From: an uncultured delta proteobacterium
GTDB taxonomy: Bacteria; Desulfobacterota; BSN033; UBA1163
Direction of reading: 5' to 3'
DNA length: 64,000 nt
Assembly (NCBI GenBank): GCA_963708295.1
Contig: CAVPSJ010000004.1
Coordinates: forward strand, 1,107,154-1,171,153
Numbering within the stretch: position 1 is the first letter of the stretch; the number at the start of each line of letters is the position of its first letter. The translations under genes were made by a program, and so were the position numbers. The notes beneath the pieces are model-generated. The model ran no database searches, was not told where the DNA came from, and was given only the letters and a program-made list of their open reading frames with translations. This document shows, one piece after another, positions 27,886 to 62,649 of this stretch.

Positions 27886-27902
27886 ATTAAGATTCTAACG
27901 CT

Positions 27903-41047: not shown

Positions 41048-41117
41048 AATATTTCAGTTTCCTGCCGGTCAATTGCTATTCCATTCTGTGTCGTCCCCCA
41101 ACCCTCAGAGGATTCCC

Positions 41118-41765: not shown

Positions 41766-42105
41766 TTTCTTTCACCTCCCGGTCAGTGACAGGTTCTTCC
41801 TGGAGCTTGTTTGTTCCGATGGGAACCGCGCCGCAGGCTCTCATAAAAATGATCCCAAGAATAGCACCCGAAGTAAACCCCGTTAGAAACTCTCGAAACC
41901 GAGCGGTCCATTATTTCTAACGGGTAAATAAGGTAGCCCCGCATTTAAGAGTGAAAGATACTGTATTTTGAACCCAATGAACTTGAGTAAGTTGCAATAG
42001 CCTTTGATCCCAAATAAGAAAGGCCACAGAAGCTTCGGAAGCACTTTTGTGGCCTTCTTCGATGCCAAACGATACCTTCTTACAACCTACGCACCTGCAG
42101 ACGGA

Positions 42106-42636
42106 CTATTCAACCTTCTCAGACAAAATCAAGGTCTCTCGTTTAAGAGGAGAGGGGACGTAGACCAGGTTGATTTCTATCTTTCCCAGGGCTTTTCCCG
42201 TGACAGCCATCTTTGGGATCGTGACGTCTAAATTCCCTTCGGTCATGCCTTCAGGCTGAAGAGCCTTCCAAAACGGATAAACCTTATCAATTTTCTCATC
42301 AGGTTTAAAAGGGATTGGCTTCCCAGCTTCATCCAGGTACTCGAAGGTGACCACCTGGATATCTAGGATATCTTTCGATTTATTGGTGATCTTGATGTTA
42401 GCCCTTAGGATCGGCGTCTCCACGATCTCTTTAGAAGCTGTGTCTACAACCGTGAGGACTTTAAGGTCGCTAAGTTCCACAAAAAAATTCTGGCCTTTAA
42501 GCTCGGACTTCTGGGGAGCCAAGTTCTTTGTGATTTGCTCCTGTTTGGGAGCCTCCGCCTTTTTCTCCGCAGCACAACCAAACAATCCAATGGCCAGAAT
42601 TAAACCTATTAACATGAAGATCTTTGTGAAATGCAT
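42106..42636 (-). CDS. Hypothetical lipoprotein
   Basis: Lipobox LFGC; RBS AAGGAG; hairpin at 42017-42060. Confidence 0.75.
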   Translation of the reverse strand: MHFTKIFMLIGLILAIGLFGCAAEKKAEAPKQEQITKNLAPQKSELKGQNFFVELSDLKVLTVVDTASKEIVETPILRANIKITNKSKDILDIQVVTFEYLDEAGKPIPFKPDEKIDKVYPFWKALQPEGMTEGNLDVTIPKMAVTGKALGKIEINLVYVPSPLKRETLILSEKVE

Positions 42637-43337: not shown

Positions 43338-43705
43338 TCCTCGTCGGATCGCTCTCAGATCCTTAATCTTCGTTCTTCACTCTCAATGACAGTATACGAA
43401 ATTTTAAAGAAATTGCACCTCGAAAAAACGCCCTATTTTCTCATTGACTTACCCATCCGCAATCTAATAAAATTTTATTAGAAGTAAGGAATGCACCGGA
43501 CTTTCGAACTCATCGATTTTCTTCTGGCAATGGGGAAGTCCATGCGCCGTTTGAAGAAATATCTCGTTGGTCCGGGAGAAACTAAAAGACAGTCGTGTCA
43601 ATTTCAAAGTAGGATAATTTCCGAGACAGAATACTGTCATTTTCTGTTGCCTTTCGATCGGGCGAATTAGAACGGCTGAAATCATTAAGATCGAGGAGAA
43701 CCAAC

Positions 43706-44624
43706 ATGCGCGTGACTCGTGTTTTATGTCTTTTCTTGGTCATCTCATTTTTTCTATTCTCCCAGTGGTGTGAAATTCCATACGCTGATGACTCGTTGCA
43801 TACAGGACATGAATCTCTTATCGATAAATACCATAAGATTGAAAAAGAACTGGAAAAAAGTTCTTTGACTATTCCTTTCTACTTAGAATCCTCCGTGAGT
43901 AAAAATGCCTCCCATGTCGATATCTACGGCACTATTAAATATCCTTTCGATATTGTAGAAAATGAGCTTCAGTTGCCCACTAACTGGTGCGATATCGTTT
44001 TGCCTCATAGTAATGTAAGAGCATGTACTTATAAGAAGGTGAATGATACATGGCTGCTCAACTCTTTATAATGTCAAGAAATTCCAGGACCCTCTTAAGG
44101 ACGCCTATCAAATGAATTTCGAATACCGCGTCATTGCGCAACAGCCCGGATTTTTTGCTATTTCACTTGCCGCACGTGAGGGGCCCTTTAGGACAAAGGA
44201 TCACCAGTTCGGACTTGAGGCGATACCATTAGACCAAGACAGGACATTTATTCATTTAAGGTATTCTTATCGTTACAGCTCCTTGGGATATTTCCTTATG
44301 AAAAGCTACTTCGCATTATTCGGTGGCGGTAGGATCGGTTTCAGTGTAATCGGTACGGATAGCGACGGTAATCCTGTTTATGTGGGTGGTCTAAGGGGCG
44401 CAGTCGAAAGTAATGTGCTGCGCTATTATCTTACGATTCTTGCATACATGGATACACTTAAGATTCCTGTTGAGCAACGATTTGAGAAACGAATGAGTCA
44501 ATGGTATGATTTGACAGCTCGATACAAAAGACAGCTTTTCGAAATGGAAAAGGAAGAATATCTCACCTACAAGAGACAGGACCAAGAAAGTCAGCTAATC
44601 CTTCAAGGGGCTTTGAACAGATAG
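43706..44624 (+). CDS. Exported hypothetical protein (frameshift near 44060)
   Basis: Signal-like N-terminus; ORFs 43706-44071 and 44043-44624 join with one indel. Confidence 0.65.
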
Positions 44625-44800
44625 CGGTAATTGTCGATACAAATCCCTTTAAAGATTACTGATGCATATTATTGTGTTTTATTTCAACATTTTTGATAGA
44701 TGACCAAGCCCGGACCGTTTGAGATCTGAAAAACAGGTCCGTGCGAGTTTAGGGCGAGAAATGAAAATGTTTCGGTGATAACCTCTCGAAGGGAACAATC

Positions 44801-45922
44801 ATGGCCGGCATAGAGATCATTACTGTGGAAGGAGGATCGGAATTAAAGGACTTCATTGACCTGCCATGGAGGATCTATGCTGAGTACCCCAACTGGGTTC
44901 CCCCCCTTAAGAAGGAGGTTCGCCGGATGCTGGACCCCCGCAGACACCCTTTCTGGGAGTTTTCCGAGCGCATCCTCTTTCTGGCCCGACGCGGTTCGGA
45001 GACGGTGGGAAGGATCGCGGGCATCATAGATCGTCATTATAACCAGTTCCACGGCGAAAAGATGGGCATTTGGGGATTTTTCGAATGCGCTGACGATCCG
45101 GAGGCCGCGGCGGCCCTCTTCTCTTCCGTGGAGACGTGGGTTCACCAGAAGGGGATGACCTTCATGAGAGGCCCGCTCAACCCGTCCACCAATTACGAGG
45201 TGGGGTTGCTCATTGAGGGATTCGATTATCCGCCTGCCTTGATGATGGCTTACAACCCGCCGTACTACCCAGGGTTGGTCGAATCGTGCGGTTTCACCAA
45301 AGAGAAGGACCTGCTGGCCTTCCTGATAGATGGCGATTACCGGCTTCCCGAGTGGATGGATCGTCTTGCTGAACGGATCACCCAAAAAAGAGGTATCCAC
45401 ATCAGGCTCTCTCGTCCAAAGGATGCGGACTCTGAGTTTGCTCTGATCAAGGAGATATACAATGCATCCTGGTCCGGTAACTGGGGTTTCGTCCCCCTGA
45501 GCGATAATGAGATGCGGGACATTCAAAAGAACGTGATGAAATTCGTGGATCCGGACTTGGTTTTCTTCATCTATTATGAGAATGAACCCGCAGCGTTCTG
45601 CGTGATCTTTCCTGACATCAACCCTTTGCTCAAGCGTCTCAACGGGCGGATCGGTCTGATGGGTTTGCTGAAGTTCCTCATGTATCGGCGGGAGATCAAC
45701 GGATTGCGGTTGTTGATGTTCGGGATCAAGGAGAAGTACCGACAACTGGGACTCCCCATGTTAGCCTTCCACCACATCTATGAGGTTGTGAGGAAAAAAG
45801 AGAAATATCATTATCTGGAGCTGGGCTGGACCCTGGAGGACAACGAGTCGATCAACTCATTGATAGAGGAAGCCGGCGCAAAAAAATACAAGAAATATCG
45901 CATATTCAGAAAGTCTTTATAA
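44801..45922 (+). CDS. YghO-like GNAT N-acyltransferase (bacterial ceramide synthase bCerS-like)
   Basis: FIDLPWRIY..WVPPL..HPF..GRIAG..GFFE..RGPLNPSTN..YNPPYY..NWGFVP..PDIN..WTLEDN..YRIF. Confidence 0.8.
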   Translation: MAGIEIITVEGGSELKDFIDLPWRIYAEYPNWVPPLKKEVRRMLDPRRHPFWEFSERILFLARRGSETVGRIAGIIDRHYNQFHGEKMGIWGFFECADDPEAAAALFSSVETWVHQKGMTFMRGPLNPSTNYEVGLLIEGFDYPPALMMAYNPPYYPGLVESCGFTKEKDLLAFLIDGDYRLPEWMDRLAERITQKRGIHIRLSRPKDADSEFALIKEIYNASWSGNWGFVPLSDNEMRDIQKNVMKFVDPDLVFFIYYENEPAAFCVIFPDINPLLKRLNGRIGLMGLLKFLMYRREINGLRLLMFGIKEKYRQLGLPMLAFHHIYEVVRKKEKYHYLELGWTLEDNESINSLIEEAGAKKYKKYRIFRKSL

Positions 45923-45965
45923 TTTTAAAAGATTGAACGTATCGCGTTGAAGCAGAGGTCTGGAC

Positions 45966-48900
45966 ATGTTGGCTGAGCATCGGGTTTCTATCATCGCTTT
46001 CGTCTGGCGGCCTGAGGAGATCATCCCATCGGTGATCCAAATGGCTCATCGAACAGGGAGCAGAGCCATCTTCGATTTTTCCATGATGGGGGTGGAAGGG
46101 TTACGTTCTTTCTTACGAAAGGCTGACCCTGCCGGCCACGTTAGGGATATCAAGATTTCTGTCCCTGCCTTGATGGATCCATCTTTGGGGCGGTTACTGA
46201 AGGAAACAGGGGTCCACGACATCTGGGTAGAATGCCACCCCCAGTTTTTTCAAGGAGATCCTTCCATCTTTCTACAGAGATTGAGGGAATTGTCGGAAGA
46301 CCACTGTTGCTTTCCAATCATCGGAGACTTGGATCTCCTGGCAGCGATTTTGAAGGATAGCTCGGGAATCGGGCGCATCGTCCTGAAAGGATGCGAGGCC
46401 TCCGGATTCGTGAGCGGTGAGACGACCCTGGCTCTCTATTCGGTGGCCAAGGAAATGCTGCGCACACCCTCGAAGTCTCTCGACATCCTCATCTGGGGAG
46501 GCGTCTCCACCCCTGAGGCGGCAGCGGCATTCCTGTCCACAGGGGCCGCCGGGATCGTCTTCGAGAGCGTCCATTGGCTGACAGACCTGGTTGCCATTGA
46601 TGATGTTCAACGCCAGCGGCTCTCCAAGCTCCGCCTGGATTCTACCGATCTGGTTGGCCTGGACCTGCAGGTTCCTTGTCGCCTTTTCAACAAGGGAAAC
46701 TCTCTTGCGTTCAAGGAGATCAAGACGTTCGAGGACTCGCTGTGCGGAGCAGAGATCACGGAGGAAAGCCGCCGTTCCTTCGTAAGCCAGGTGCATGCCA
46801 GGGCCCTCCACCCTCTGGAGAGCCATTTCAGCAAGGACGAGGTCATCCCTCTGGGTGTGGAGGCTGCCTTTGCTCGCGTCGTTCGTTGAGCGTTTTGGGG
46901 CCGGAACCGAGGAGGCCGTGAAAGCCTTCATGGACGAGATTCGAAACTTATGCCACCTGGCTGAGGCGAAAAAGGATTGCTTTTTGGACAGCCCTGTAGC
47001 CAGAGAGATGGGAACCCAATATCCCTTTATCCAGGGGGCCATGTCCTGGATCACAGATGTCCCGGAGTTTGCCTCAAGGGTTGCCGATGCCGGTGGATTG
47101 CCCACCATCGCCCTTGGCCTGATGGACGCGGAGGCCCTTGACCGGAGGCTGGGACGCCTGCCGGAGATCATGGGAGGGCGCCCTTATGCAGTGAATGTCG
47201 TCTCTCTGGCAGAGAACCCTTTCAGGGAGACGCATCTGGCCTGGATAAAGAAACACAGACCCCGTTTTGTGGTGATCGCCGGAGGCGATCTCTCCCCCTT
47301 AAGAGAATTGATAGAATGCGGCATAGAGGTCATGTATATCGCTCCTGATGAGGCCCTGTTGAGGCTCGCCCTTGAAGCGGGCGTCCGATACGTGGTCTGC
47401 GAGGGGTATGAGGCCGGCGGCCACGTGGGGCAACATAGCACACTCACCCTTGCTCAAATGGTGTTGGATCTCAAACGGCGCAAGCCATCCCTGTTCCAAA
47501 ACTGTCGCGTGATCCTTGCAGGGGGAATCTTCAATCGGGAGACCGCATTCATGGCCGCCATGCTCGGCGCGGACGCCATCCAGATGGGCACCGCCTATCT
47601 GGCCACCCGGGAGATCGTTGAAACGGGCGCCTTGACGGCGCTCTATCAGCGGATGATCCTGGAATCGCCTCCGGGGGGAACAGTCGTTTCAGGCCAAGGC
47701 ACCGGACTTCGGGTGCGATCCTTGAGGACCCCGAGAGTGGCGGCTATTTTGTCCCTGGAGAGGGAGTTTGCAGCGGGCCACCAGGACGAGCCCTCCTTCC
47801 GGGCGAGAATGGAGGAGATGGCCGCGGGGAGCCTTTTCGCTGCGGCCCGAGGCATGGACAGGCCGGGCGGGGTGCCTCTGGATGAGCGGGTCTGTCTGGA
47901 ACGCGGGCAATTCATGAGCGGGGCCTGCGCCGGCCTCATCCGTGAGGTCCAGAAGCTGCAGTCCTTTCACCGCGAGCTGGCCGAAGGCCCTCTTTTGCTG
48001 CATCAGCCCGTTGTGGGGTCGATCGAGAAAATCCCGGAACCTCCACCCAACGCGTCGCTATCCATGGAAACTCCATCCTCCGGGGTTGGCCATGGACTGA
48101 AGCGAGTGGCCCCCCATAGAGACGATCGTGAAAGGGTTGCCATCACCGGGATGAGCATACTCAATGCCCTGGGGAAGAGTCCGGAGGAGGTCTGGGCTGC
48201 AAGCCTGGCCATGAAGAGCGGGATTACATTGGTTCCGCCTTCCCGGTGGGATCACGAGCGTTTTTATGATCCCCGGCCGCACATTCCGGACAAGACCTAC
48301 TGCAAGGTGGGCGCCTTCCTGGACTTTCATGTCTCCCGCAATGAACTCGGGATTCCTCCCCATGATTTCCGGACCATGACCGAGGCCACAAGGATCACCA
48401 TGTGGCTGGCGGACAGGGCCATCCGGGCATCCGGCATCCTGGAGTCAGACATCCCGCGCGAGCGAATCGGAGTCCTCATCTCCCAGAACTCGGGGGAGGC
48501 GGCGGGGACCCTCACCGATATGATCATCAGGGAGTACGTTCACGATATCCTTGGCGCCATCAAAAGGGCCGTTCACCTCACGCCGGATCAGGAGAGCGCC
48601 ATCGAACGAGAGGTGAAGTCCGGACGCATGGCCCCGGACGACACCACACTCCTGGGCAGACTCAACTGCGCAGCGGCCGGCTTCATCTGCAACCGGTATG
48701 GGTTCATGGGGCCCAGCTATTCTGTCTCCGCAGCCTGCGCGACCTCACTGGTCGCACTTCACAGCGCCATCCAGATGATCCGAAACGGCATCATCGATGC
48801 CGCCATCGTCGGAGGGGGCGAGGACAATCTCACCCACTTGCATTTTCTGGAATTCTCCGCCCTGGGCGCACTTTACGGGCTGTCCGGACAGGAAAGACCC

Positions 48901-51900
48901 GCTCACGAGACCTCCCGCCCCTTCGATGCTGAAAGAGACGGGATGGTCCTCGGCGAAGGCGGGGGAATGATCGTCATCGAGCGGGAAAGCCTGGCCCGCG
49001 CAAGAGGGGCGCGTGTCCACGCCGTCGTCACCGGCATGGGAGCGAGCAACAACCATCTGGGCATGGTGGAGTCCTCCAGTGTCACCCAAGAGATGGCCAT
49101 CCGCGCCTCTTTCCGAGGGATACCCTATGGGCCCGATGCAGTGGACCTGGTGGAATGCCATGCCACGAGCACCCGGCAAGGAGACGTGGAGGAGGTCCGT
49201 GCCCTGAAGGCCGTCTTCAATTCCTCCAAGCGCACCGTGATCACCTCATTCAAATCCCAGATCGGACACACACTGGGCGCCTCGGGCATTAATAGCCTCA
49301 TTCGAGGAGTCATGGCCATGAAGGCGGGGGTTTTTCCTCCCACCCTCAATTATATGCATCCAGACCCGGAAATCGACCTGGAAGGATCGGGTCTCCTCAT
49401 CGCCCCGGAGCCGCTTGATTGGAAGGGCAGGGACGGCCAGCCAAGAAGGCTTCAGGTCAACGCCTTCGGGTTCGGAGGTTCCAACTACGTTGTGCAGGTG
49501 GAGCAGGCCATGGATGAAGTGGATACGATCCTGGTCTCACCGGGCAGAGAACCCGGTCTCGATCGAGAGAAGGGGGGTGGCCCTCCCACGCTCCAGGGCG
49601 TCTCTTTCTTCCGGACTGAGATGGACGGCCGTAACTGCCGGATGGCCGTCGTGGCGCAATCCGAAGAGGAGGCGCTCACGGTCATCGAGAGGTCGGCCTC
49701 CCTTGCCGAAGCCGGAATCGTCTCACCCAAGGCATTGAGGTCCCTGGCGCAGCAGGGGATTTTCATGAGCCGCGAGGATCTGCCGGCCCTGCCGCTCGCC
49801 TTTGTATTTCCCGGACAGGGGTCACAGTATGGAGGAATGGGGCGGGATCTCTACGAGTCCTTTCCCGTCATCAAGGAGTGGATGGATCGGGCTGCAGCTG
49901 CAGCGGACTTCGACCTCCTTCACTTATTGTTCCACGATCGAGAGGAGAACCTTCAGAAGACCCGGTGGCAGCAACCTGCCATGTTCGCCATGGAACACGC
50001 CATGGCTCGATACCTCACCACCCTGGGTATCCACCCTGTGGCCATGGCCGGCCATAGTTTGGGCGAACTGACCGCCTTGTGCCTGGCCGGTGTCTATTCC
50101 CCGGAGGACGGGTTTCGAATCGTGAACAAGAGGGCCCTCTGCATGGACAAGGCCGCTGCCATGCACGTGGACCCCGGCGTCATGGCGGCCGTGGACGCCC
50201 CCCTGGATCTGCTGAAAGAGATGATCCAGGGACGGGAGGATGTCCACATCGGCAATATCAATTCACCGAACCAGATCGTCCTGAGCGGCAACACCGAGGC
50301 GGTCAAGGATCTCTGCAAAAGACTGAAGGAAATGGGCTACCGGGCCACCCTCTTGCGGGTCAGCATGGCCTTCCACTCTCCTATCATGAAGGTCATCCAT
50401 GATGAGCTCGAGGCGTACATTGCCTCCATTCCATTTCATTCCCCGCAGATTCCCGTCATCTCCAACACGACCATGGCACCGTATCCATCAGATCCCGGTG
50501 AGATCAGGCGAATCCTGATGGCCCACCTGGAATCTACCGTCCATTGGATGAATAATGTCCAGACCCTTTGGAATGACTACGGAGTCCGGCTCTTCGTGGA
50601 GGTGGGACCCGGCGAAACATTAAGCAATCTCATCGCAGACACGCTTCCTGAATCGGCATGTATCCAGACGTGCCTTCCCTCCGCAGAGGGCCTGACCTAC
50701 AAGACCGCTCTTGCTCAGCTCTTCGTTCAAGGTCATCTGAAGGTTGAAGGAGAACCGAGGTTTGTTTCCCTCTCTGCATTCAGAAAAACTCCCGAATCTC
50801 ACCGAATCGCCCCAGCACCCGCGTTACGACCGTCGGAACTTGGGCTTGCAGGCTCCAACCCGGTGGAGAGGATCATTCAAAGGGAAATCAACCGATTCGT
50901 GATAGAGACCTTCGGCCGCTTCCTTAAGCCCAACATCCTGGAAGCCATCCGCCAAGAGCTTAACCCAACATTCCAAGAAGGCGATCTATCATCCGTTATC
51001 AAATCCATGCTTGTGGGTTCCGGGCCTCCCGAAGGCCAGAAGCAGGTCTCTCCCGGGAAACCGGCATCCCCGCCTCTCGATTCCACCCCTGCCATTCCGG
51101 AACAGGCCTCACCTGCCCCCGGTGAGGCGCCTGAGGACCAAGATCTTATGGAGAGGCTTATTCGAATCATCATGGATGCTACAGGATTCAATAGGGACGA
51201 GATCCAACCCGATATGGATCTCAGAAGGGACCTCTCCATCCGATCCAGCCGCCTCCCCATCATCATGGATGCTGCGGAACGCCAATTCGGGATCACGATC
51301 GAATTGGAGGATTTTATAAATGTCCGTACCGTGAAGGACATCGCCCAGAGGATCTCCAAGATAATCGCCAGGCAGGGAGGTACCAGCCTGCAGCCGGCCA
51401 CCAAGGCTGTTGACCCCGACCCGGTGCGGGATGAAATCCTGAAGTCCTCAGAGGATGAGGCGAGCTTAAAGCGGCTCGTATTCAACCACGCCACGGTAGA
51501 GTTGGCGGCCTCTATTCCCATGGAATTGAGCCCAGGCGAGTCAGTCCTCCTTCTCTCGCCTGACAGGGATGACGGGATTGCCAGAAGTGCAGGGGACATC
51601 CTCCGACTGGATTACGGGGTTGACACGTTTCCAATGCTATTCATGCAAGGGAACTTCGGTCCTGGCGAAGAGGGCCACGACATTCGAACCGATGAAGGGG
51701 CCTCCAGGGCTGTAGATAGAATAGCGGGCCTGTCGCCCCTTTCCGGGATGGTCATCACCCTCTGTCAAGGCGGGTCGGGAAGGTTAAGAAGCATGGCGGA
51801 TGTTTCGCGGCTTCTCAGGGGGCTCTTTCTCCTCCTGAAGGCATTTCTTCAATCACCGGCTAAGAAATTCGTGGTGCTGATCCATTCCAGGGAGGATACC

Positions 51901-53931
51901 GAAACTCCCGGTCGGCTGCTGGCGGAAGGGATGCTCGGACTTTTTCTGAGCGCAGCGCAGGAACACCCATCGGTCCAGTTTCGCACATTGGAAATCGACA
52001 GGGATACCGACCTTCGCGTTGCGCTGCGCGGTGCTCTGGACAGAGGATGCACCGTGGTGGAGATCATTCATCGTGATGGAAGGGTCTTCACTTCGGAGGG
52101 GCACTTAGCCCCGTCGGTCTTCGGGGATTCGTCAAGTCTGAATCTGAGCCCTGGAGACGTTGTCGTCATGTCCGGGGGCGCAACCGGGATCAGCGCCCAC
52201 CTGGCCCGCTGCCTTGTGCCTTTCACGCCCCGCCTGGTCTTTCTGGGGAGGACCCCTCTCGATCCAGGCATCCATCCCGCAAAGCCGCGCCCCGAACATT
52301 CGTCTTCTGAGGCGTTCACTTTCGACCCCAGGGCATCGGAGATCGCTCGGACCCTGGCGGATTTGCACTCCTCAGGGATCGAGGCAACGTACCATACCTG
52401 CGATGTGACTGACCCCGAGGCGGTCCGCGCGATCATGGGCGAGGTGGCAAGCCGTTATGGCAAGATCGACGGGATCATTCACGGCGCCGGAGTCCTCAGG
52501 GACGGTCCCTTAAGCCAAATGACCCCGGATGATTTCTCCATGGTCACGGACGTCAAATTCCTCGGGGCTTGGAATCTATTCTCGGCTGCGGAGGGGGCCG
52601 GTTTGAGGTTTTTCGTGGGCCTCTCCTCGGCGGCCGCGATCCAGGGGAATCCTGGCCAGGCCAACTACGCTGCAGCCAACCGGATGATGTCTGCGTTACT
52701 CAGAACCCTCCGCCGGAAAAACGGCGCCATCCGGTTCAAGGCTTTGATGCTTCCCCCTGTCGAGGGGGCGGGCATGGCCGAGGATCCGGAGGTCCGGGAG
52801 CTGATGAAGCGGAAGGGCGCGGCGTACATCCATGTAAATGAGCTTGCAGGGCTTTTCTGCCGGGAGCTCTTTGTAGCCCCGGCCGACGACGATTGGGTGA
52901 TGTTCATGAGGAGACTGCCATCCGTGAGGACGTCACTGCTCAATGATACAATCCGTCCTTCGCCCAGTGGAGAACTGGATGGAGGCACCGTGTCCTTCAG
53001 CCCCGAGGACTTCCCCATGATAGAAAGGATCTCTTGCCTGGACATCCGCCGGGAAGAACTGGAGGCCTTCAGATCCTTCTCCCTGGAGAAGGATCTTTGG
53101 ATCGCGGATCACAGACCTTTCAAGTTCGTCAAGCATCCTCTGGTCTCAGCCGCCATGGTTCTGGAGACATTCATGGAAGCCGCCCGGATCCTGTATCCCC
53201 ACCTGCAGGTGCGAGGAGTTCGCCAGGTGCGGCTCATGGACATGATCCAATGTCCTCCCGGGGTTCCACGGCCTTCCAGGATCTCCTGCCGCCGAGCCGG
53301 CAACGGCCTTCGGGAGGTATGGTGCGAGGTCTCTCTCGCAACACAGGAGATCTCCCCCGCCGGGAGATTGACCGACCGCTTCACCCCGCACTGCAAGGGC
53401 CAGGTGATCCTTGATGGCGGGGATGGCGGGGGAGGATATCTCGGGGAGGGGTTCCCGGATTTTCCTGTCCGGCTGGACGAACTGCGGACGAGGCCCATGG
53501 ATCATAAAAAGGTGCTTAAATGGTACAAAGACCGCAGCGGCCTCGAAGGCAGGTATCGCGTGATGGAGTTCCTTGACGGTGCAGGTCCAGGGGTGGTACG
53601 GGGCCGAACCACCTACCGGGAGACAAGTGATTTCGCAAATCTGCGGAACGCCCGGTACCAATACTCTCCCTACCTTTTCGAGGCCCTTTTGCAGTTGGTC
53701 GGCTTCCACATCGCTGCAACGGACCCATCGGAGCGGCGATCGATGATTCCCATGGAGATCGGGGAGATGAGGTTTTTGCGAAAATGCCGGGTAGGGGAAC
53801 AGATAACGCTGGAGGCCCGCATGCGGGCGCAGGACGACGAAGGCCTCGCCTGGGACGCCAGAGGGATTGACGATCAAGGCCGCACCATCATGCAGGTTTA
53901 TGATATGCGGATGCACTGGGTTTCGGACTGA
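45966..53931 (+). CDS. Single-module type I PKS/FAS: ER'(FabK-like)-ER-KS-AT-ACP-KR-DH (one indel near 46875)
   Basis: GCEASG and EAGGHVG TIM barrels; KS SAACATS/ECHATST/KSQIGH; AT GQGSQ/GHSLGE/AFHS; ACP DLSIRSS; KR GGATGI/HGAG/NYAAAN; DH DHRP..P. Confidence 0.92.
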
Positions 53932-53967
53932 GCCTTCAGGGCTCGGAAAGAACGCAGATCGGGAAAG

Positions 53968-54747
53968 ATGGGAGTGGATGTGGCAAAGGATTGCCAAGGA
54001 TTAACCGTTCATGCCGTGAGTTTCGTTCATCGAAGGGGACCCGTCTTCTATGCATCTTTACCATGTGGCCATGTGCCACCGAAACCCTCAAAGGATGTGG
54101 GACGAACGGGGCAGGGGACAAGCACCGCCTCGTCTCCACCCTGTGGGATCACCTTGTGGCGATGGAAAGTCCTCTTTGGAAACGCTGTCAATCCTCCAAC
54201 AGAGCTGCTTTCCCAATTCAGGTGGTCCGCGGCCTGCTTGGCAGGCCCCATCTCCTGTTGGGAGAATATCGGGGTCCGGCCATCTCCTTCAGCGAGGGTG
54301 GAGGAAAAGTCTGGGCTGCTCTCTGTGGAGATGAGTCTGATATCGGCATCGATGTGGCAGGGACCGATGAATTCCAAAGAGAATACCCCTTTCACCGGGT
54401 CTTCCATCCACAAGAGCTTCAACATGCCTTGAGGTTGGCGGGCGGAGATTTGGAAAAGGCATCAGCCCTGCTCTGGTCTATCAAGGAAGCCGTTGTCAAG
54501 GCCCTGGGATGTGCATTCCATCTCGTGGATCCGCGGCAAATCACCGTCTATCCGTCGGTAGGGGGGCGGTAGGGGGAGACGGCGGGTATACCTTTCCGGT
54601 GGGCTTATCAGGGAAGGCCCTGGTGCGGTTTCCCATAGCTGCCGGCCGGTCCCTATGGGTACGTTCGCTTCCTCAGGGAAGATGTGGCTTTCCATCGCCC
54701 TCTTGAATCGGCAGACATCGATGAGGCGATGGGCGGAGGCGTTTTAA
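53968..54747 (+). CDS. 4'-phosphopantetheinyl transferase (Sfp type; several indels)
   Basis: GRP, ISFS, IGIDV, WSIKEAVVKALG; ends approximate. Confidence 0.85.
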
Positions 54748-54781
54748 TACCAGTTGCCCTATAGAGGCAAAATGTCGATCC

Positions 54782-55735
54782 ATGACGAAAGAAGCTGAAC
54801 ACGCAATCGAAGTCGAGAAACTGACGAAGCGTTACGGGGATTTGCTGGCGGTCAACGACATATCGTTCAACGTCAGGAAAGGCGAGGTTTTCGCCCTGCT
54901 GGGCCCGAACGGCGCCGGCAAGACCACTACCGTCGAGATCATCGATACGATCCGCACGCCCACGTCGGGAAAAGTGACCCTTCTCGGGATGGACGTCACG
55001 AAGAAGAAGCACGACATCGTCCCCCGCATCGGCGTCCTCCCGCAGGGGTTCAGCTCGTTCGACAGGATAACGGTCAGGGAGACCCTGCAGTACTACTCGC
55101 GGCTTTTCTGCTGCAGGAACACCGATATCGACGGGCTGATAGAGCTCGTGAACCTCAAGGACAAGACCAAAGAGCAGTACAAGAACCTCTCCGGGGGCTT
55201 GAAGCAGCGCCTCGGAATCGCGATTGCGCTCGTGAACGACCCCGAGGTCGTGTTCCTCGACGAGCCGACGACAGGGCTCGACCCCCGCGCAAGGCGCGAG
55301 GTGTGGGAAGTCCTGCTGGGCCTGAAGAAGAAGGGGAAGACGGTATTTCTCACCACGCACTACATGGAGGAAGCGGAGCTTCTTGCAGACACGGTCGCCA
55401 TCATCTCGAAGGGGAAGATCATCGCGATGGGCTCTCCCGGGGAGCTCATAGAAAGCAACGCGAATTACCTGGTCCTCACGCTACAGTCCGTCGATGAAAA
55501 AGTCTTTGAAATCGTCCGGAAGATGGGCTTCGAGCCGGTCCATGACAACCACAAAAACATCAAGGTCAGGGTGGAGCACACGGACGACGTCCAGAAGATA
55601 CTGAACGCCATCAAGGACGCCGGGGCGTCGTTCCTCAGCCTGGACGTTCGCAAGCCCAACCTCGAAGAGGTCTTCCTGAAGCTCACCGGCGAGGCGCTCC
55701 GCGAAGGTCCCGCCGGGGGAAGGGGGGCGGAATGA
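54782..55735 (+). CDS. ABC-2 exporter ATPase
   Basis: GPNGAGKTT, LSGGLKQR, DEPTTGLDP, THYMEEAE, NLEEVFL. Confidence 0.94.
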   Translation: MTKEAEHAIEVEKLTKRYGDLLAVNDISFNVRKGEVFALLGPNGAGKTTTVEIIDTIRTPTSGKVTLLGMDVTKKKHDIVPRIGVLPQGFSSFDRITVRETLQYYSRLFCCRNTDIDGLIELVNLKDKTKEQYKNLSGGLKQRLGIAIALVNDPEVVFLDEPTTGLDPRARREVWEVLLGLKKKGKTVFLTTHYMEEAELLADTVAIISKGKIIAMGSPGELIESNANYLVLTLQSVDEKVFEIVRKMGFEPVHDNHKNIKVRVEHTDDVQKILNAIKDAGASFLSLDVRKPNLEEVFLKLTGEALREGPAGGRGAE

Positions 55736-56851
55736 ACCTGCGCGTCGTCGGCGCAAATCTCGTCGTGAGCATCAAGAGCTTCTACCGCGAGAAGACCGCC
55801 ATGTTCTTCACGATTGCGTTCCCGATAATCCTGATACTCGTGTTCGGCACCATTTTCATGAACCAGGACAACGTGAGCTTCAACCTTTACGTGCAGGACC
55901 TCGACCAGACGAAATCCTCCGCAGCAGCTCGTCAAGACCCTCGAGCTCAACGGGAAGTTCAAGATAACCAAGGTCGACCCTGCCATCAACGCCACGCAGT
56001 ACGCCAAGGACAACAAGGTGAACCTTGTCCTCATTATTCCCAAAGGCTATGAAAGATCCCTCAAGCAGAGGATGAGTGTTCAACGACCCCAACGCATCCG
56101 TTACCCTCACGTACATATACGACCCCAGCTCTTCTTCGGTGTCCACGAAGATGCAAATCCTGAACTCGGTGTTCGCCGGGATAAACCAGGAGATGTCCGG
56201 GAAGCCGCCGTTCATCAAGATCGGCCGAGACATCGATACTCACCAGGAAGTACCGGTTCATCGAGTTCTTCATCCCCGGCATCATCGCGATGGCGGTGAT
56301 GACAGCGAGCCTGTTCGGCACGGTGAACTTGAACACGGAGCTGCGGCAGAAGGGTGTCATCAGGAAGCTATCCACCACGCCCATCACCCGTACCGACTGG
56401 ATACTGTCGAACATCCTGTACCAGTTCATACTCGCGGTCATATCCACGATTGCGATGCTGCTGGTGAGCTACGCCGTGTTTAACGTCAGCCTGCAGATAA
56501 ACGCCTGGCTCCCTGTGTTCATTGTGCTTGACGTCTTCGCGTTCGTCGGAATCGGGATGATACTCACCCGCTTCGCGAAGGAGGCGCAGAGCGCCGCCGC
56601 CGCGGCAAACGCCATCAGTTTCCCGATGATGTTCCTCTCGGGGAGCTTCTTCCCCATCGAGATGATGCCGGGCTTCCTGCAGACGTTCGCCAGGATACTG
56701 CCTCTGTACTACGTGAACGAGGGGCTCCGGGCATCCATGGTATTTGTCGACCACATGGACCGCGCTGAGTTACTCCGCGATCATAGGGGTTTTCGCGGCC
56801 GTGGTCTTCATCCTGGGCATCATCGCCACCAAATGGGAAGAGGGCAAGTGA
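55732..56851 (+). CDS. ABC-2 exporter permease (several indels)
   Basis: REKTAMFFTIAFP; FFIPGIIAM; FPMMFLSGSFFP..LPLYY; corrected frame ends TKWEEGK-TGA 56851. Confidence 0.85.
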
Positions 56852-58612
56852 TCGCAAAGTGCCCCCTTCGCGCCATCACTCAGGCACCCTATCCCCGTGC
56901 CATGACCGCCTTGGTTGCAGCGACGCTCGCTGTCCTCATCGATCCCATTTTCAGGTTCAGTGATTACCGAGCTCTGCTGCATTTGCTCCCGGTCGCCGGC
57001 ACCATGAAGTTCTCGGGCGCCCTCACGCTGGTCTTCCTGCAGGTGGTCGCCCTCTTCTATCTCATCCTTCTCCTCCCCAGAATTCTCCGCACGGTGGCCC
57101 TCCTTCTTTCTGTTTTCGTTATCGTCGTCCAATTCTCCTTTCGGCTGACGCTATCCCAGTTCATGACCGGCACCGACCTGTTTCTCGCCCTGACCGTCGG
57201 CGTGGGCACTCTCGGAGAAGCCGTCTTAAGCTTCCTCAACCCGCTCATCTTCTTGTATGCTCTCCCCTACGCACTCGTTCTCTCCACACTGATCCTCGTC
57301 CCCCTCAGGTCCACCTTCCGAAAGTCCCTCGCCCTCAGCCTCCTGCCGGCGTTCTACCTCCTCGCTTCCAATTACGCCCTCTTCCTTCACGTGCCGGAAC
57401 GCAATTTCCATCTGAATCCTTTGACCTCCTTCGTCCGTTCAACACTTCATTACGAGTTCGAAACCCTCCGCGAATATCATGGACCCCGAGACGACCTGCC
57501 GACCTTTCACCCCTCCCAACGGCCACTCGACAGCATCATCTATGTCATCGACGAGTCGGTCCGTGGCAGCAATCTCAGCCTGAACGGCTACCCGCGCCCC
57601 ACCACACCGTTCCTTCAATCCCTCGAAACCCAGGGGCGCCTCAAGAATCTCGGCATTTGTGTTGCGGCCAGCTCCTTTTCCCACATCAGCAATGCCTATC
57701 TCGTTACCGGTCACAACGCATTTCCCGACGACGCCTTTCGAACCGCCAGGAACCCAACCCTCTTTGATTACGCAAAGAAAATGGGCTACGAGACGATCTA
57801 CATTGACATCGATCAAGGCTACCTTTCTCCGCTCATGAAAGCGGCCGGGAAGGGTCCCGTGAGATCCTTGGACCGGTGGATGACCGAGCAGTCGTTCAAG
57901 GAGCGCCACATCGATCTTGAAACCACGAAGGATTTGGGCGTAGCCCGCTTTCTCAGTGGTCTTCTGAATGAAAGAGGCGGCTATTTCGTTCTCGTCAACA
58001 AGAAGGGTCTCCATTTCCACTATCGCAATAGATACCCGGACGATCCGGCCTTTACGATTTGGAGGCCGGTTATGGAAGCATCGGAACCCATTGACCCCAG
58101 CGCGACCGGACGTGAGAAGCTCGTCAATACCTATGACAACGGGATTCGCTTTCAGGTGGATGAATTCTTCCGGGTGTTCGTTTCCGATACGACGAATCAG
58201 AATTATGTCATCCTGTACACATCGGACCATGGCCAGACGTTGGCCGAGCATGGGCAAGTGTATACCCATGCGAAGCCTGACAAGGTGATCGTCGATGTAC
58301 CCGAGTTCCTCGTGGTCGGGTGAGCGATATGGCAAGAAGGGGCTCTTAGCCGGCATTCGCCCCGGCATCCGGGTTTCCCATCTGAACAATTTCGCGACCC
58401 TCCTCGATCTGATGGGCGTACCGATGTCTTTGCGGGTTCGTCCTTACGACAAATCGATTTTCTCTTTGACAGCCGAGGACAACAGAGTGCGTACCTATAT
58501 GAGCGGCTCTCTTCATGGATTCGGCGATTACGTGGTGAAGAGGATACCTACACCACCGGATGAGGGCTGGGGCGTTTCGAGACCTGTCGGCAAGGGTCCC
58601 AAGTCTGAATGA
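56848..58612 (+). CDS. EptA-like phosphoethanolamine transferase (sulfatase superfamily; frameshift near 58320)
   Basis: About 5 TM segments, then VIDESVR..LNGYPRPTTP, GLHFHY, YDNGI, YTSDHG, YTH. Confidence 0.85.
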
Positions 58613-59964
58613 TGAAAATAAAACTTATCGCACCGCGTGAACCACGTGAAGACACTTTATCCAGCCCTTTCAAGCTGCAGAGGGTCAATCTTCCTCTTCT
58701 GGCGGCGCTTACCCCGCCTGGCCACACGGTGACCATTGTCGATGAAGCTTTTGCTCCCGATGACATGAATCAGGATGTGGATTTGGTGGGGATCACCGTC
58801 ATGACTGACCTTGCGCTCAGAGCCTATCATATCGCTGACACCTATCGTCAGAAGGGTGTGAAGGTGGTGATGGGAGGAATACACCCCACGGTATTGCCTG
58901 ACGAAGCTTTAGAGCATGCAGACGCTGTCGTCGTGGGAGAAGCGGAGGGTATCTGGCCACGACTTGTATCGGATGCCGCCTCGGGACAGATGCAAAGGCT
59001 CTATCGGGCCGCTAAAATGACAGATCTCAAAGGCCTACCGAAACCACGGCGAGATCTCTTCCCCGGAACCAAATGTAATGGTTATACTCCTATCCCGATC
59101 GGCGTCGAGACATCCCGAGGGTGTCCGTACGATTGCGAATTCTGTTCCATTGGCCAGACCTTGGGGCATCACTATCGAGTCAGGCCGGTTCAGGAGGTGA
59201 TTGCCGAGATAGAGTCTATTGATTCCCCTCACCTCTTCTTCGTCGATGACGCCCTTGGACTGAACCGGAATGCAGCCAAAAAGCTTTTTACTGAAATGAT
59301 ACCTCTTCGGCGGCTATGGCTGGGGCAGGGAACAGTGTCGTTAGCTGAGGATCTGGAGCTGCTAAGATTGATGAGACGTTCGGGGTGCATGGGGCTTTTG
59401 ATCGGATTCGAATCGGTACAGAAAGAAACACAGAATGAGGTGAAGAAAATAAAGAACCTGAGGATCGATTTTTATGAGGCCATGCGTCGATTCCATGGCG
59501 AAGGTTTCGGTATACTGGGCGCGTTTGTTTTTGGCTTTGATTACGAAAACAAGGATGTGTTCGAGCAGACCCTTGAGTTTATAATGAGAGGTCGTCTGGA
59601 TTGTGTCGAGCTGAGGATTCTCACTCCTTTTCCGGGAACTCGGTTATATCAGCGTCTCTTAAGCGAAGGCAGGTTGTTTGTGCGTGACTGGTGGCTCCGT
59701 GGATATCCTCCGGATACCCTCCTTTTTCAACCCAAGGGCATGACTGCTGACGAGCTCATTAGTGGTTTCGCCCGCTTGAACAGACAAACCTATTCTTTCG
59801 GCGCAATGATAAAACGATTCTTTGGCATGAGTCCATGGAAACGGACTCTGCTCGGTTGCCAAGTGTACGCCGGGATCAATCTATCTACCCGTAAACGTTA
59901 TTTCAAAGGCCTGAGGAATCCACAACCCTTTGCAGGGGCTTCCAACTCAATAGGAAAGCAATAG
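58609..59964 (+). CDS. B12-binding-domain radical SAM protein
   Basis: LAALTP, GGIHPT, GEAE, TSRGCPYDCEFC, FVDD, GFES, TPFPGT; coupled to the upstream stop. Confidence 0.92.
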   Translation: MMKIKLIAPREPREDTLSSPFKLQRVNLPLLAALTPPGHTVTIVDEAFAPDDMNQDVDLVGITVMTDLALRAYHIADTYRQKGVKVVMGGIHPTVLPDEALEHADAVVVGEAEGIWPRLVSDAASGQMQRLYRAAKMTDLKGLPKPRRDLFPGTKCNGYTPIPIGVETSRGCPYDCEFCSIGQTLGHHYRVRPVQEVIAEIESIDSPHLFFVDDALGLNRNAAKKLFTEMIPLRRLWLGQGTVSLAEDLELLRLMRRSGCMGLLIGFESVQKETQNEVKKIKNLRIDFYEAMRRFHGEGFGILGAFVFGFDYENKDVFEQTLEFIMRGRLDCVELRILTPFPGTRLYQRLLSEGRLFVRDWWLRGYPPDTLLFQPKGMTADELISGFARLNRQTYSFGAMIKRFFGMSPWKRTLLGCQVYAGINLSTRKRYFKGLRNPQPFAGASNSIGKQ

Positions 59965-60019
59965 ATATCACCTGTAAAAAAGCAGTAGAGATATTACGGT
60001 AGTCCATTCCAAAAAATGG

Positions 60020-60673
60020 TTAGGATGAAAGCCAAAGCACGTCCCCGAACAGATTAGGATCATGGGAACGGGAGGAAAAGATGGCAAATTCTGTCTTTTC
60101 TTTGCTCAATAGGGTGGGATCGCCGTGACCAGGGTATATCTCTGTATCATCAGGCAAGACAAAGATCTTACTGGTTATGGATTCGATTATTTGCTTCAAA
60201 TCAGCCGGCGACTCTGTCTTACCCGGGCCTCCGGGGAAGATAGTATCTCCCGAAATAAGATATTTTCCTATTAAAAAGCACACACTGCCGGGTGTGTGAC
60301 CAGGCGTATGAAGGACTTTCAGACTGATGTTTCCAAAGGATACCTTTTCACCGTCATCCAGGAGAATTTCTGGTCGTAGAGGCAGACCGTTGGCGTCCAG
60401 ACGATGGGTGCCAATGGGAATCCTTAGCTTGGACTTTAGCTCGGATAGTGCGCCGACATGATCCGTATGGCTATGAGTGATTAGCATGTATCTGGGATGA
60501 GTCCCTTTCAACTGTCTTAGAATTTCAGCTGCTTCTGCGGGAGCGTCCACCAACACACTATCTCCGGTTAGGGGACAGGTGATGATGTAGCAATTCGTGT
60601 AGCAATGCGTATCGAAGGGTCCCAATGTACGCCTATCGATCTGAACGTACTTATTTTTTGCCACACGTGCCAC
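60020..60673 (-). CDS. Glyoxalase II-like MBL-fold hydrolase
   Basis: THSHTDH, HTPGHTPG, SGDTIF, YPGHG. Confidence 0.9.
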   Translation of the reverse strand: MARVAKNKYVQIDRRTLGPFDTHCYTNCYIITCPLTGDSVLVDAPAEAAEILRQLKGTHPRYMLITHSHTDHVGALSELKSKLRIPIGTHRLDANGLPLRPEILLDDGEKVSFGNISLKVLHTPGHTPGSVCFLIGKYLISGDTIFPGGPGKTESPADLKQIIESITSKIFVLPDDTEIYPGHGDPTLLSKEKTEFAIFSSRSHDPNLFGDVLWLSS

Positions 60674-61028
60674 GTTTATTCCCTCTGGGGATGATAAATT
60701 GTCTATTTCAGTATATCCCCTGAACCCATTCAGTATATCGATATCACATTAAGGAGAGAGGTTCAAGGCTGTCTGTATTGTATGGAGCTCATCCTTTTCA
60801 AACATTGGTCATCTCTCAAAGGATCAGGAGGAGATATTACTCTAAATTCCATATCGTTTCTCTCAAGATCTTTCTTCCGATTGACATTACTCGTTGATCC
60901 TCGATGAATATTCGAGGCCTTTCAGTTGTTCACTGATGTAGAATCTTGGACAAAATCTGGTTTTTGTTAAATTGACCGTTGACTGGTACAGGAAAGAAAA
61001 CGGGTTATAATTGGAAACGAGGTGCTCC

Positions 61029-62210
61029 ATGGATATCTTTGAAAAGTGCGTAAAAGCGACGGAGTATGAATCTGGATTGAAGGAAAGTGGTTCCTATTTC
61101 TTTTTTCGGAAGCTCGAATCCCCGCAGGATTCTGAGGTGGTGGTCAACGGGAAGAGAGTGATCATGATCGGTTCTAACAATTATCTTGGACTCACCAACC
61201 ACCCCCGGGTAAAGGAAGCAGCGCTCAAGGCCATTGAAAAATACGGTAGCGGCTGTGCGGGTTCACGATTTCTAAATGGGAATCTTGAGATCCACGAAGA
61301 ACTGGAAAAGAAGCTGGCCAGGTTCTTTCGGAAGGAAGCTGCTCTCGTCTTTGCAACCGGCTACCAGACCAATTTGGGAGTGATCCCTGCTCTTGTGGGC
61401 CGGAACGATGTCGCTATTATCGATAGGTACGATCATGCAAGCATCATTGACGGCTGTCGCCTCTCCTTCGGTGAGGTCAAGAAATACCGGCATAACGACA
61501 TGGATGATCTGGAGCACGTCCTCGAGGGGTGTAAAGGGAAGGGTAAATTGATCATCGTCGATGGCGTTTTCAGCATGGAAGGCGATATTGCTGATCTCCC
61601 TGCTATTGTGAGGCTAGCCAAGGCCTATGGGGCGAGGATCATGGTAGACGACGCCCACGGGATCGGCGTTCTTGGAAATGGAGGACGGGGAACGGCGGAG
61701 CATTTTGGCCTTGAAAACGAAGTAGATCTTATCATGGGAACCTACAGCAAATCCCTTGCCGCGATCGGCGGCTTTATCGCAGGTCCGTCAGAGGTGATCA
61801 ATTGGATCAAGCACCTGGGTCGCTCGATGATCTTCAGCGCCAGTCTCCCACCCTCCCTGGTGGCATCGGTGAGCGCCGCTTTGGACATCATCGAAGAACA
61901 GCCCGAATTAAGAGCCCGGCTTTGGAGAAATACGCACAAGATGCTGAGAGGATACAAAACGCTCGGGTATGATACAGGAACGAGCGAAACTCCGATCATT
62001 CCCATCCTTATTAAAGACACCATGAAAACTTACCAGATGTGCAAGCTCCTCTTCGAAAATGGTGTCTTTGTCAATTCGGTCATTAGCCCTGCAGTCCCCC
62101 CAGGACGAGAACTCCTCAGGACAAGTTACATGGCGACCCACACGGAGGAACAGTTGGATAAGGTCTTGGCTGCCTTCGAGAAGGTGGGAAGACAACTGGG
62201 AGTGATCTGA
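61029..62210 (+). CDS. spt: Serine palmitoyltransferase-like alpha-oxoamine synthase
   Basis: GSNNYLGL, GCAGSRFLNG, HASIIDG, FSMEGD, DDAHG, GTYSKSLA (PLP Lys), IFSASLPP, RTSYMATH; these match SPT better than KBL or BioF. Confidence 0.8.
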   Translation: MDIFEKCVKATEYESGLKESGSYFFFRKLESPQDSEVVVNGKRVIMIGSNNYLGLTNHPRVKEAALKAIEKYGSGCAGSRFLNGNLEIHEELEKKLARFFRKEAALVFATGYQTNLGVIPALVGRNDVAIIDRYDHASIIDGCRLSFGEVKKYRHNDMDDLEHVLEGCKGKGKLIIVDGVFSMEGDIADLPAIVRLAKAYGARIMVDDAHGIGVLGNGGRGTAEHFGLENEVDLIMGTYSKSLAAIGGFIAGPSEVINWIKHLGRSMIFSASLPPSLVASVSAALDIIEEQPELRARLWRNTHKMLRGYKTLGYDTGTSETPIIPILIKDTMKTYQMCKLLFENGVFVNSVISPAVPPGRELLRTSYMATHTEEQLDKVLAAFEKVGRQLGVI

Positions 62211-62289
62211 CGGAAACCGAGGGCATGACGAAACAAGACCTGCACCTTCAGGAGGTAAAAAGCGAACAAGATCTCGATCCGGGCCTTCG

Positions 62290-62530
62290 TGCACATAAAC
62301 AAACACAGGGGCTGAAGACCCATGTGGAAATCCAGAGTAAACCTACAAATCCCAAGATCCCCAATCTGACGGTTCTCGATTAGATCCGTGAAACTTCCTA
62401 TTATCTTTGGATCCAATGTCGGAGCCACATTTCTGAGATAGGCACGGATATGATTGAGCACTTTTTGGTTGTTGTAAAGGTAAGTTCCAACCAGTCCCAA
62501 TACCAGCATGATAAAAGGAATCAAGTTAAT
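62290..62530 (-). pseudogene. YihY/BrkB-family membrane protein fragment
   Basis: LIPFIMLVLGLVG..HIRAYL..PTLDPKI..; shifted frame GILGFVGLLWISTWVFS; no plausible start or full length. Confidence 0.45.
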
Positions 62531-62649
62531 GAGGATATTAACATGATCTTATGTTAGCGGACATCCTGTTTTTTCTCCTCCTTATTTTGTCTGTAAATGG
62601 TCGTCTATATATTGGATTAGATCGAAGACATAGTCCATGTAATTGTCTC

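Follow-up and report, generated by a model that had tools for sequence, protein, structure and literature searches.

A horizontally spread cassette pairs a bCerS/YghO-family acyltransferase with an iterative one-module synthase in uncultured bacteria

The window studied here, a 64-kb stretch of a contig (C4) from an uncultured delta proteobacterium, carries a gene cassette in which a paralogue of the bacterial ceramide synthase bCerS (YghO in Escherichia coli) precedes an iterative one-module fatty acid/polyketide synthase (FAS/PKS). Downstream of the synthase lie genes for a 4'-phosphopantetheinyl transferase (PPTase), an ABC-2 exporter, an EptA-like transferase and a B12-binding radical SAM enzyme, followed by a gene for an Spt-type alpha-oxoamine synthase (AOS). 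We marginally favour a reading of the sequence in which the adjacent bCerS paralogue unloads the thioesterase-less synthase onto a sphingoid base, and in which a ceramide-type lipid would be the product. Unloading by the bCerS paralogue is deduced because the synthase contains no release domain, because the GNAT-type acyltransferase is its sole invariant neighbour, and because one variant of the cassette encodes its own FAAL-ACP for the base. All positions are those of the window, and gene content was judged by Pfam and NCBIfam profile searches of its open reading frames (ORFs). The genes listed in the original prediction are all present and co-oriented on the forward strand, with coordinates that hold, and the AOS, which had been placed about 1 kb further on, begins 1047 bases after the stop of the radical SAM gene.

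The acyltransferase gene (44801-45922, forward strand) is intact and encodes a 373-aa member of a PKS-linked subtype of the YghO/bCerS N-acyltransferase family. Its product matches E. coli K-12 YghO, which served as the family reference in place of Caulobacter bCerS, over the full length (BLASTP; 32% identity, 374 columns, E = 8e-69). In PMC9386255, the legend to Figure 9 groups yghO (ECD_02850) with CC_1154, which Caulobacter needs as its N-acyltransferase for dihydroceramide, and an intact E. coli strain has yghO next to a FAAL-epimerase-ACP-spt gene group. The window protein is a member of the bCerS/YghO family, as had been supposed, and N-acylation is its predicted function. The protein, labelled GNAT earlier, has no Pfam or NCBIfam match of its own, its family being shown by the BLASTP match to YghO, and a phmmer search of the PDB gave nothing below E = 0.4.

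Related loci were divided by the identity of their acyltransferase to that of the window into canonical members (<50%) and a PKS-linked type (at least 73%). Around canonical members, an Spt-like gene lies within 4 kb in 41 of 63 loci, and 33 of the 63 have a CerR-like gene no more than 5 kb away; none of 70 has a PKS. For the PKS-linked type, the PKS follows directly downstream in all 55 loci with enough sequence. In a FastTree phylogeny of 100 family members, rooted on YghO and retaining every third member of the group of at least 73% identity, all 22 PKS-tagged tips belong to one clade of 27 (support 0.815; 0.995 for the group of at least 73%), the five untagged tips being loci that end shortly after the gene. 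This PKS-linked clade is nested within the Spt-linked YghO family. The PKS-type acyltransferase is the sole YghO homologue found in 25 of 50 cassette genomes, and 14 of those 25 also have an Spt-like gene. In a relative of the studied organism (genome G005), Spt-like (56%) and YghO-like (41%) matches lie in a single 792-aa open frame on the reverse strand (C38:10431-12746), which may be a natural Spt-bCerS fusion protein.

The synthase gene (45966-53931, forward strand) encodes a fully reducing iterative enzyme with an NMO-like region, an NMO-type ER, KS, AT, one ACP, KR and DH, in the order ER-ER-KS-AT-ACP-KR-DH. An ORF of 307 aa at 45966-46889 is the N-terminal portion of this PKS, which is a single ORF in loci L009 (2673 aa) and L028 (2659 aa); the intact L009 synthase has an extra N-terminal region before its NMO domain. 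By Pfam, the 2673-aa protein has one PP-binding domain, one KS and a PfaD-like NMO domain; tandem ACPs and the KS-CLF of the Pfa type were not found in these searches, nor was a thioesterase domain in either the window ORF or the intact L009 homologue. The gene for the Sfp-type PPTase follows at about 53965-54714 (forward strand; ACPS domain, E = 6e-12) and is broken.

The AOS gene (61011-62210, forward strand) is intact and encodes 399 aa. Its best NCBIfam model is SerpalmtaseCFB (NF047600, a Bacteroidota-type Spt; 563.3 bits, cut-off 640), and it scores 421.6 bits with NF047599 (cut-off 500), 416.5 with KBL (460), 396.5 with BioF (426) and 350.4 with NF047603 (670). In an IQ-TREE phylogeny of 27 rows it falls, with E. 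coli Spt, into a clade of 14 rows supported at 99/97, which also holds the AOS of Geobacter-type cassettes and that of a Gemmatimonadota Spt-YghO-epimerase trio. The other 12 rows include E. coli BioF and Kbl together with paralogues of 37-47% identity, so the enzyme does not group with KBL or BioF. The Spt of E. coli BL21 has SPT activity according to the available text of PMC9386255. The window protein is a Spt-clade AOS whose activity is predicted from these relatives. It is also the single AOS-family match in the genome. The gene bioB is present (395 bits, over cut-off), and the genome search found no bioF-type AOS besides Spt and no bioA over cut-off; biotin synthesis may be incomplete or non-canonical in this organism.

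An AOS gene accompanies the cassette in three independent arrangements. In the variant represented by the window, the radical SAM gene is followed after 0-5 kb by an Spt of 82-94% identity in L081, L082, L089, L113 and L116, directly so in L089. The Geobacter/Desulfuromonadales-type locus L028 has the order PLD, an unnamed gene, CerR-like, AOS, PAP2_3, GNAT, another unnamed gene and PKS, and CerR-like and Spt-like genes are found directly upstream of the PKS-linked acyltransferase in 6 of 58 loci. In L087, a 1131-aa FAAL-ACP-AOS fusion is encoded between the PPTase and ABC genes, and a PAP2_3 gene follows the radical SAM gene; an AOS occupies the interval between PPTase and ABC genes in 4 of 43 loci anchored on the radical SAM gene. 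The L087 fusion appears to follow the AasR-AcpR-Spt logic in one protein, and therefore the base there can derive from a free fatty acid. Among the 50 cassette genomes, an Spt-like gene (at least 53% identity) was found in 32, and nine more have an AOS domain in an open frame of 1113-1218 aa, with L087 the one such frame in which the domains were examined.

These arrangements bear on the question of which enzyme receives the synthase's chain. The chain on the synthase ACP could instead be condensed by the Spt-type enzyme with serine (or another amino acid) to yield an unusual long-chain base, which the YghO-type enzyme would then acylate with an ordinary chain. There is precedent for such a route, as an iterative PKS and an SPT make sphinganines in the system described in the available part of PMC12134224, and rhodobacterial SPTs are stated in the consulted text of PMC9386255 to favour acyl-ACP over acyl-CoA; moreover, Spt travels with this cassette variant and stands directly after the radical SAM gene in L089. 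Nevertheless, we consider this route unlikely, as the constant neighbour of the synthase is the acyltransferase (55 of 55) rather than the AOS, found upstream in 6 of 58 loci and downstream in 6 of 43, and the FAAL-ACP-AOS variant can itself activate and carry the acyl group for the base, which would be redundant if the synthase ACP fed the AOS.

A second alternative is that the product is an N-acyl amine lipid with no sphingoid base, such as an N-acyl amino acid or acylated polyamine, and that Spt is linked to the cassette by chance or by shared regulation. The substrate range of the YghO family has been tested in Caulobacter only, most cassette loci lack an Spt within 10 kb, nine of the 50 cassette genomes yielded neither an Spt-like gene nor a fused AOS, and some variants carry a FemAB-like gene of the aminoacyl-transferase type, all of which would suit such a product. 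On the other side, the two families occur together: in a sample of 201 genomes from the phylum, 33 have both YghO and an Spt-like gene, eight YghO only, four Spt only and 156 neither, so that an Spt-like gene is present in 33 of 41 YghO-positive genomes against 4 of 160 YghO-negative ones (base rates in the sample: 37 of 201 for Spt-like genes and 41 of 201 for the YghO family). In addition, two independent cassette variants contain AOS genes as built-in parts, Spt bears the horizontal-transfer signature of the cassette described below, and the PAP2_3 genes that accompany the cassette in L028 and L087 also match the PAP2_C model, presumably typical of sphingomyelin-synthase-like enzymes. A non-sphingoid product thus seems quite improbable to us.

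Taken up again from its first step, the ceramide-type pathway that we favour, each chemical step of which we infer, would begin with activation of the synthase's single ACP by the PPTase. The synthase would then build a saturated special acyl chain, which the bCerS paralogue would transfer to the amino group of a sphingoid base, the base itself coming from the Spt-type AOS that travels with this variant. Next, a CerR-like reductase encoded on another contig of the assembly (C7) would reduce the keto group, the radical SAM enzyme would tailor the chain without oxygen, and the ABC-2 pump would carry the lipid away from the inner leaflet; phosphoethanolamine may finally be added by the EptA-like enzyme, an optional part that this variant has. 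The reductase step leans on genes outside the window, in which no CerR-like gene was found, in agreement with the original prediction; a search of the genome located a CerR-like epimerase on C7. There it accompanies a PAP2_3 gene and a second YghO paralogue, 43% identical to the window acyltransferase, with the CerR-like and YghO genes 106 bases apart and no Spt between them. Six sampled genomes of the same family have a canonical Spt (80-82% identity) directly beside YghO, and none of them has the PKS type. The only Spt of the studied genome is found beside the cassette and not in the canonical CerR-Spt-bCerS position that it occupies in all six sampled relatives, a placement of particular importance for this genome.

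The exporter consists of a DrrA/NodI-type ABC transporter ATPase (54782-55735, forward strand; intact; ABC_tran E = 1.6e-31; 278 bits with TIGR01188 drrA, below the cut-off of 312) and an ABC-2 permease (55732-56851, forward strand), which has ABC2_membrane matches, is 371 aa long when intact and is broken in the window. The B12-binding radical SAM enzyme (58609-59964, forward strand; 451 aa, intact) is kept after the ABC-2 permease in related loci, indicating that it is a core member of the cassette. It contains a B12-binding domain (PF02310, E = 1.3e-11) followed by a radical SAM core (PF04055, E = 1.2e-14), and it reaches no NCBIfam equivalog (HpnJ, 99 bits against a cut-off of 578; BchE, 91 against 481; a 'ladderane' lipid radical SAM model, 74 against 360); its best match in the PDB is AprD4 (E = 4e-14). 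The expectation that the genes would occur together in other genomes is borne out by this conserved permease-radical SAM order and by the invariant adjacency of acyltransferase and PKS. Wherever the original prediction could be contradicted in silico, by an AOS of the KBL or BioF type, an acyltransferase outside the bCerS family or a failure of the genes to co-occur, what we found agrees with it.

Other genes of the cassette are variable. The EptA/MCR-like gene (56833-58612, forward strand) encodes a putative membrane protein of the phosphoethanolamine-transferase family with a Sulfatase domain, 593 aa long when intact (L098), and is broken in the window. It is present in 10 of the 43 loci anchored on the radical SAM gene, and contig joints skip it (about 56878-58602) in four of four metagenome runs. 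As the gene is optional, the phosphoethanolamine head group that had been proposed is not a core feature of the product: the presence of the EptA-like gene stands, and its status is that of an optional insert. The protein aligns with full-length MCR-1 over 456 residues and both domains (phmmer, E = 3e-17) and with NmEptA (E = 4e-12). In the MCR-1 alignment E, H, DH and H, which we take to be metal-ligand-type positions, are conserved, and a Ser stands where MCR-1 has the Thr that is presumably its nucleophile. All NCBIfam scores are far under their cut-offs (NF028537, 76.8 bits against 500). Since the gene is inserted, as an optional part, into a cassette for a lipid, its acceptor is likely to be the cassette lipid and not lipid A.

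In other variants, a FemAB-like gene or a 281-295-aa gene is found instead of the EptA-like gene. An optional gene of 383-407 aa is located between the PPTase and the ABC ATPase in L081 (6698-7849) and L098 (4972-6195) and is missing from the window copy; it has weak FemAB_like, Acetyltransf_6 and ATE_C matches (aminoacyl-tRNA-transferase type), and its product could add an amino acid to the lipid. A metallo-beta-lactamase-fold gene (60020-60673, reverse strand; 217 aa; Lactamase_B, E = 5.7e-22) lies between the radical SAM gene and the AOS of the window, with 84-90% identical homologues, among the 43 loci, only in L081 and L082, the closest relatives. Locus L081 also has an MlaE permease and an ABC ATPase with a weak GGDEF match (11823-13981) between the radical SAM gene and the pair of metallo-beta-lactamase-fold and Spt genes, and a second B12 radical SAM gene after Spt (17750-19132).

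The cassette moves horizontally, across phyla. Its G+C content is 0.57-0.61 over 46-58 kb of the window against 0.44-0.48 in the flanks, and acyltransferases of 73-97% identity were found in metagenome-assembled genomes (MAGs) titled Thermodesulfobacteriota, Nitrospirota, Planctomycetota, Acidobacteriota, Verrucomicrobiota and Deferrimicrobiaceae. The nucleotide identity of rpoB to the studied genome is 83% in G005, 77% in G003, 73% in G002, 67% in G001 and 68% in G004, while that of the cassette is 94-95% in G005, 97% in G001 and 91% in G004. The Spt region is 95.9% identical to that of G005 (locus L081) at the nucleotide level, and in G001 a 93%-identical Spt lies about 17 kb downstream of the acyltransferase on the same contig, with a spacing as in the window. 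Cassette and Spt nucleotide identities of 91-97% beside rpoB identities of 67-83% therefore indicate horizontal movement. The flanks are only 68-88% identical to G005, where they are spread over many contigs. No cultured carrier was identified, all 78 PKS-type loci being MAGs by title. To our mind it is an evenly balanced proposition that the cassette is a self-mobile 'designer ceramide' module, distributed among anaerobes of at least six phyla, in which the bCerS paralogue serves as the chain-release enzyme of a megasynthase and the head-group genes are interchangeable. The same even balance applies to its further part, that the head-group genes are those between exporter and radical SAM gene, EptA-like here and PAP2, FemAB-like or FAAL-ACP-AOS elsewhere.

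The window copy of the cassette is not in frame throughout. Mapping of intact homologues revealed about ten frame changes across five genes and about 15 kb. The PPTase has three of them and the ABC-2 permease four; the upstream exported-protein gene, the PKS (near 46875) and the EptA-like gene (near 58317) have one each. By comparison with short-read MAG loci, single extra bases are present near 44059, 46875, 55924, 56076, 56217 and 56759. The last four are the permease changes, which were located by a three-frame reading and by indels against the Illumina-type MAG loci L081 and L082; an intact permease homologue in L087 has 370 aa. In the exported-protein gene, tblastn recovers the L009 homologue in frame 2 from 43685 to 44059 and in frame 0 from 44061 to 44618, and the intact 258-aa PPTase of L081 falls successively on frames 1, 0, 2 and 1. 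Owing to these changes, a false 677-aa ABC-2::sulfatase fusion appeared in the list of ORFs. Programmed frameshifting or four-base decoding was considered and rejected, as the seven insertion contexts share no common motif and are not homopolymers, and an intact copy is present in the same genome.

That second copy lies on the reverse strand of another contig of the assembly (C5:1-17861, locus L278) and is 91-98% identical to the window copy at the nucleotide level. Its acyltransferase, 281-aa gene, 2680-aa PKS, PPTase, FemAB-like gene (402 aa), ATPase and permease are all open, and the radical SAM gene alone is incomplete, being cut by the contig end. It represents a different variant, with no EptA-like gene and with the 281-aa gene inserted after the acyltransferase and the FemAB-like gene after the PPTase. 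The coexistence of two different variants in this genome matters in itself.

The frame changes may have arisen in two ways. In one, they are real, the window copy is a decaying, non-functional duplicate, and the C5 copy is the working one. Such decay would agree with the contrast between the two copies, the same genes holding about ten changes over about 15 kb in the window and none on C5, and with the intact rpoB and rpoC of the genome. It would also agree with an ORF coverage of 0.74-0.75 in the two final 64-kb segments of contig C4, where the genome as a whole averages 0.82; the low coverage near the contig end could reflect more broken genes, repeats or non-coding DNA. On the other hand, seven of the ten changes are single extra bases, including the six checked against short-read MAG loci, though the three of the PPTase are not all of this kind, and neither a nonsense substitution nor a large deletion was seen. 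The PKS substitutions unique to the window copy (16 synonymous, 8 non-synonymous; 11 and 3 for the C5 copy) are unlike neutral decay; being few and mostly synonymous, they favour consensus errors at a repeated, strain-variable locus over long neutral decay, and two copies of 91-98% identity in a long-contig metagenome assembly would invite such errors. In contigs of related populations, from four runs on wetland, peat and freshwater, the extra base is missing at four of five covered sites (56076, 56218/56220, 56759 and 58317, with loose ends at 55923), although functional relatives would be free of extra bases in either case. Consensus errors are in our judgement clearly likelier than real decay, and a decaying duplicate is a possible but doubtful explanation; a real and recent inactivation of the window copy is possible.

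Several observations weigh against the proposed unloading of the synthase by the bCerS paralogue onto a sphingoid base, and against a working cassette in the window. The window AOS is below the curated cut-off of every Spt model (best 563 against 640), the labelled references in the AOS tree are three E. coli proteins only, and as the sole AOS of the genome the enzyme has possibly a second role. An Spt (at least 56% identity) lies within 10 kb in only 6 of the 43 loci anchored on the radical SAM gene, and neither an Spt-like gene nor a long AOS frame was detected in 9 of 50 cassette genomes, for which MAG incompleteness may be the cause. In the PfSgaAB system, as far as the available text of PMC12134224 describes it, the PKS feeds SPT and not N-acylation. 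Finally, five genes of the window copy are out of frame as sequenced with an intact second copy in the same assembly, and the window copy may be non-functional.

Outside the core, the cassette is preceded by a gene for an exported protein of an unnamed family (43706-44624, forward strand; 314 aa when intact in L009), with an N-terminus that resembles a signal peptide by eye. It has no match in Pfam and NCBIfam, and an Atlas search returned hypothetical clusters and a weak lead to SRPBCC (score 0.85). A homologue (40-44% identity) is encoded between the PLD and CerR-like genes of L028. Directly upstream of the cassette, at 42106-42636 on the reverse strand, is a lipoprotein-like gene of 176 aa; the same gene precedes the C5 copy (91% nucleotide identity) and is found in at least five places in G005 (80-86%), and it is a member of a multi-copy family or part of a repeat. 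Three stretches of the window (25737-27903, 30346-32151 and 39330-42106) contain no ORF of at least 130 aa. At the other end, synteny with relatives stops about 60 bases past the Spt stop; the remainder (62260-64000), which is the last 1.7 kb of the contig, contains only implausible ORFs and has no counterpart 3' of Spt in L081, L082, L116, L113 and L089.

Among known systems, the dihydroceramide pathway of Caulobacter crescentus and E. coli B/UPEC (AasR, AcpR, Spt, CerR and bCerS, the last being CC_1154 or YghO) shares with the cassette its bCerS/YghO and Spt homologues. The two are also alike in having a CerR-like epimerase-family gene, which here lies beside the second YghO paralogue on C7, and the functions resembling AasR, AcpR and Spt are fused into one protein in one cassette variant. 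Foreign to that pathway are the synthase of about 2670 aa to which the cassette ties its bCerS paralogue and the accompanying PPTase, ABC-2 exporter and B12 radical SAM enzyme; the window has no separate AcpR or AasR, and the block moves between phyla.

Pseudomonas fluorescens MYb115 provides a PKS precedent, PfSgaAB(C), in which a one-module iterative PKS is likewise genetically linked to an SPT-type AOS, with sphingolipids proven as products (PMC12134224, available text). As described there, it is a two-gene PKS and AOS unit with a KDSR homologue and with neither a bCerS-type acyltransferase nor a radical SAM enzyme or ABC-2 exporter. The cassette synthase differs in its N-terminal PfaD-type ER domains and in having the GNAT, not the AOS, as its fixed partner, a distinction drawn from the published description. 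The PfSgaAB layout is not seen in the window, where the AOS lies seven genes and 7 kb past the PKS end with an opposite-strand gene in between, and the cassette has no KDSR-type SDR. The original prediction had known of no description of the combination: no description of the cassette itself was found in literature searches that included PMC13291983 (the supplements of PMC11334938, PMC12134224 and Stankeviciute 2022, which lay outside the search, may list homologues), but a route from a PKS to sphingolipids, of another architecture, had been published in 2025 for PfSgaAB, according to the available text of PMC12134224.

The Pfa-type 'secondary lipid' synthases described in the consulted part of PMC3098273 (Shulse and Allen 2011) likewise join an NMO/PfaD-type ER to KS-AT-ACP-KR-DH, and according to the same text they have a sporadic distribution shaped by horizontal transfer, with occurrences in Deltaproteobacteria and Planctomycetes. 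Unlike them, the cassette synthase is one continuous polypeptide that contains a single KS and a single ACP and has neither a KS-CLF nor tandem ACPs. Types C, I, J, K and S of Shulse and Allen were compared and set aside: their architecture is unlike that of the cassette synthase, and no YghO, AOS or radical SAM partner is given for them in the portion consulted (PMC3098273). The EptA/MCR transferases, finally, appear to share with the cassette protein an N-terminal membrane domain joined to a sulfatase-fold domain, from which the cassette protein departs in scoring far below curated cut-offs, in the Ser at the Thr nucleophile position, and in being an optional insert in a lipid cassette.

Bacterial sphingolipids have long been considered rare. 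Spt-like genes are nevertheless recorded in dozens of phyla, including anaerobes and Desulfobacterota, in the available text of PMC11334938. If our reading is true, the cassette would represent a third logic for bacterial sphingolipids, in which a ceramide synthase comes with its own megasynthase, exporter and oxygen-independent tailoring in one phylum-crossing unit, and its GNAT would be the first ceramide synthase of that type to unload a PKS, offering a testable chain-release mechanism for a thioesterase-less PKS. The cassette would also provide candidates for the genes behind unusual amide-linked chains of environmental ceramides and a genetic source for unusual ceramides in anoxic wetlands, peat and sediments, and it would mean that membrane-lipid chemistry can be acquired as a block by horizontal transfer.

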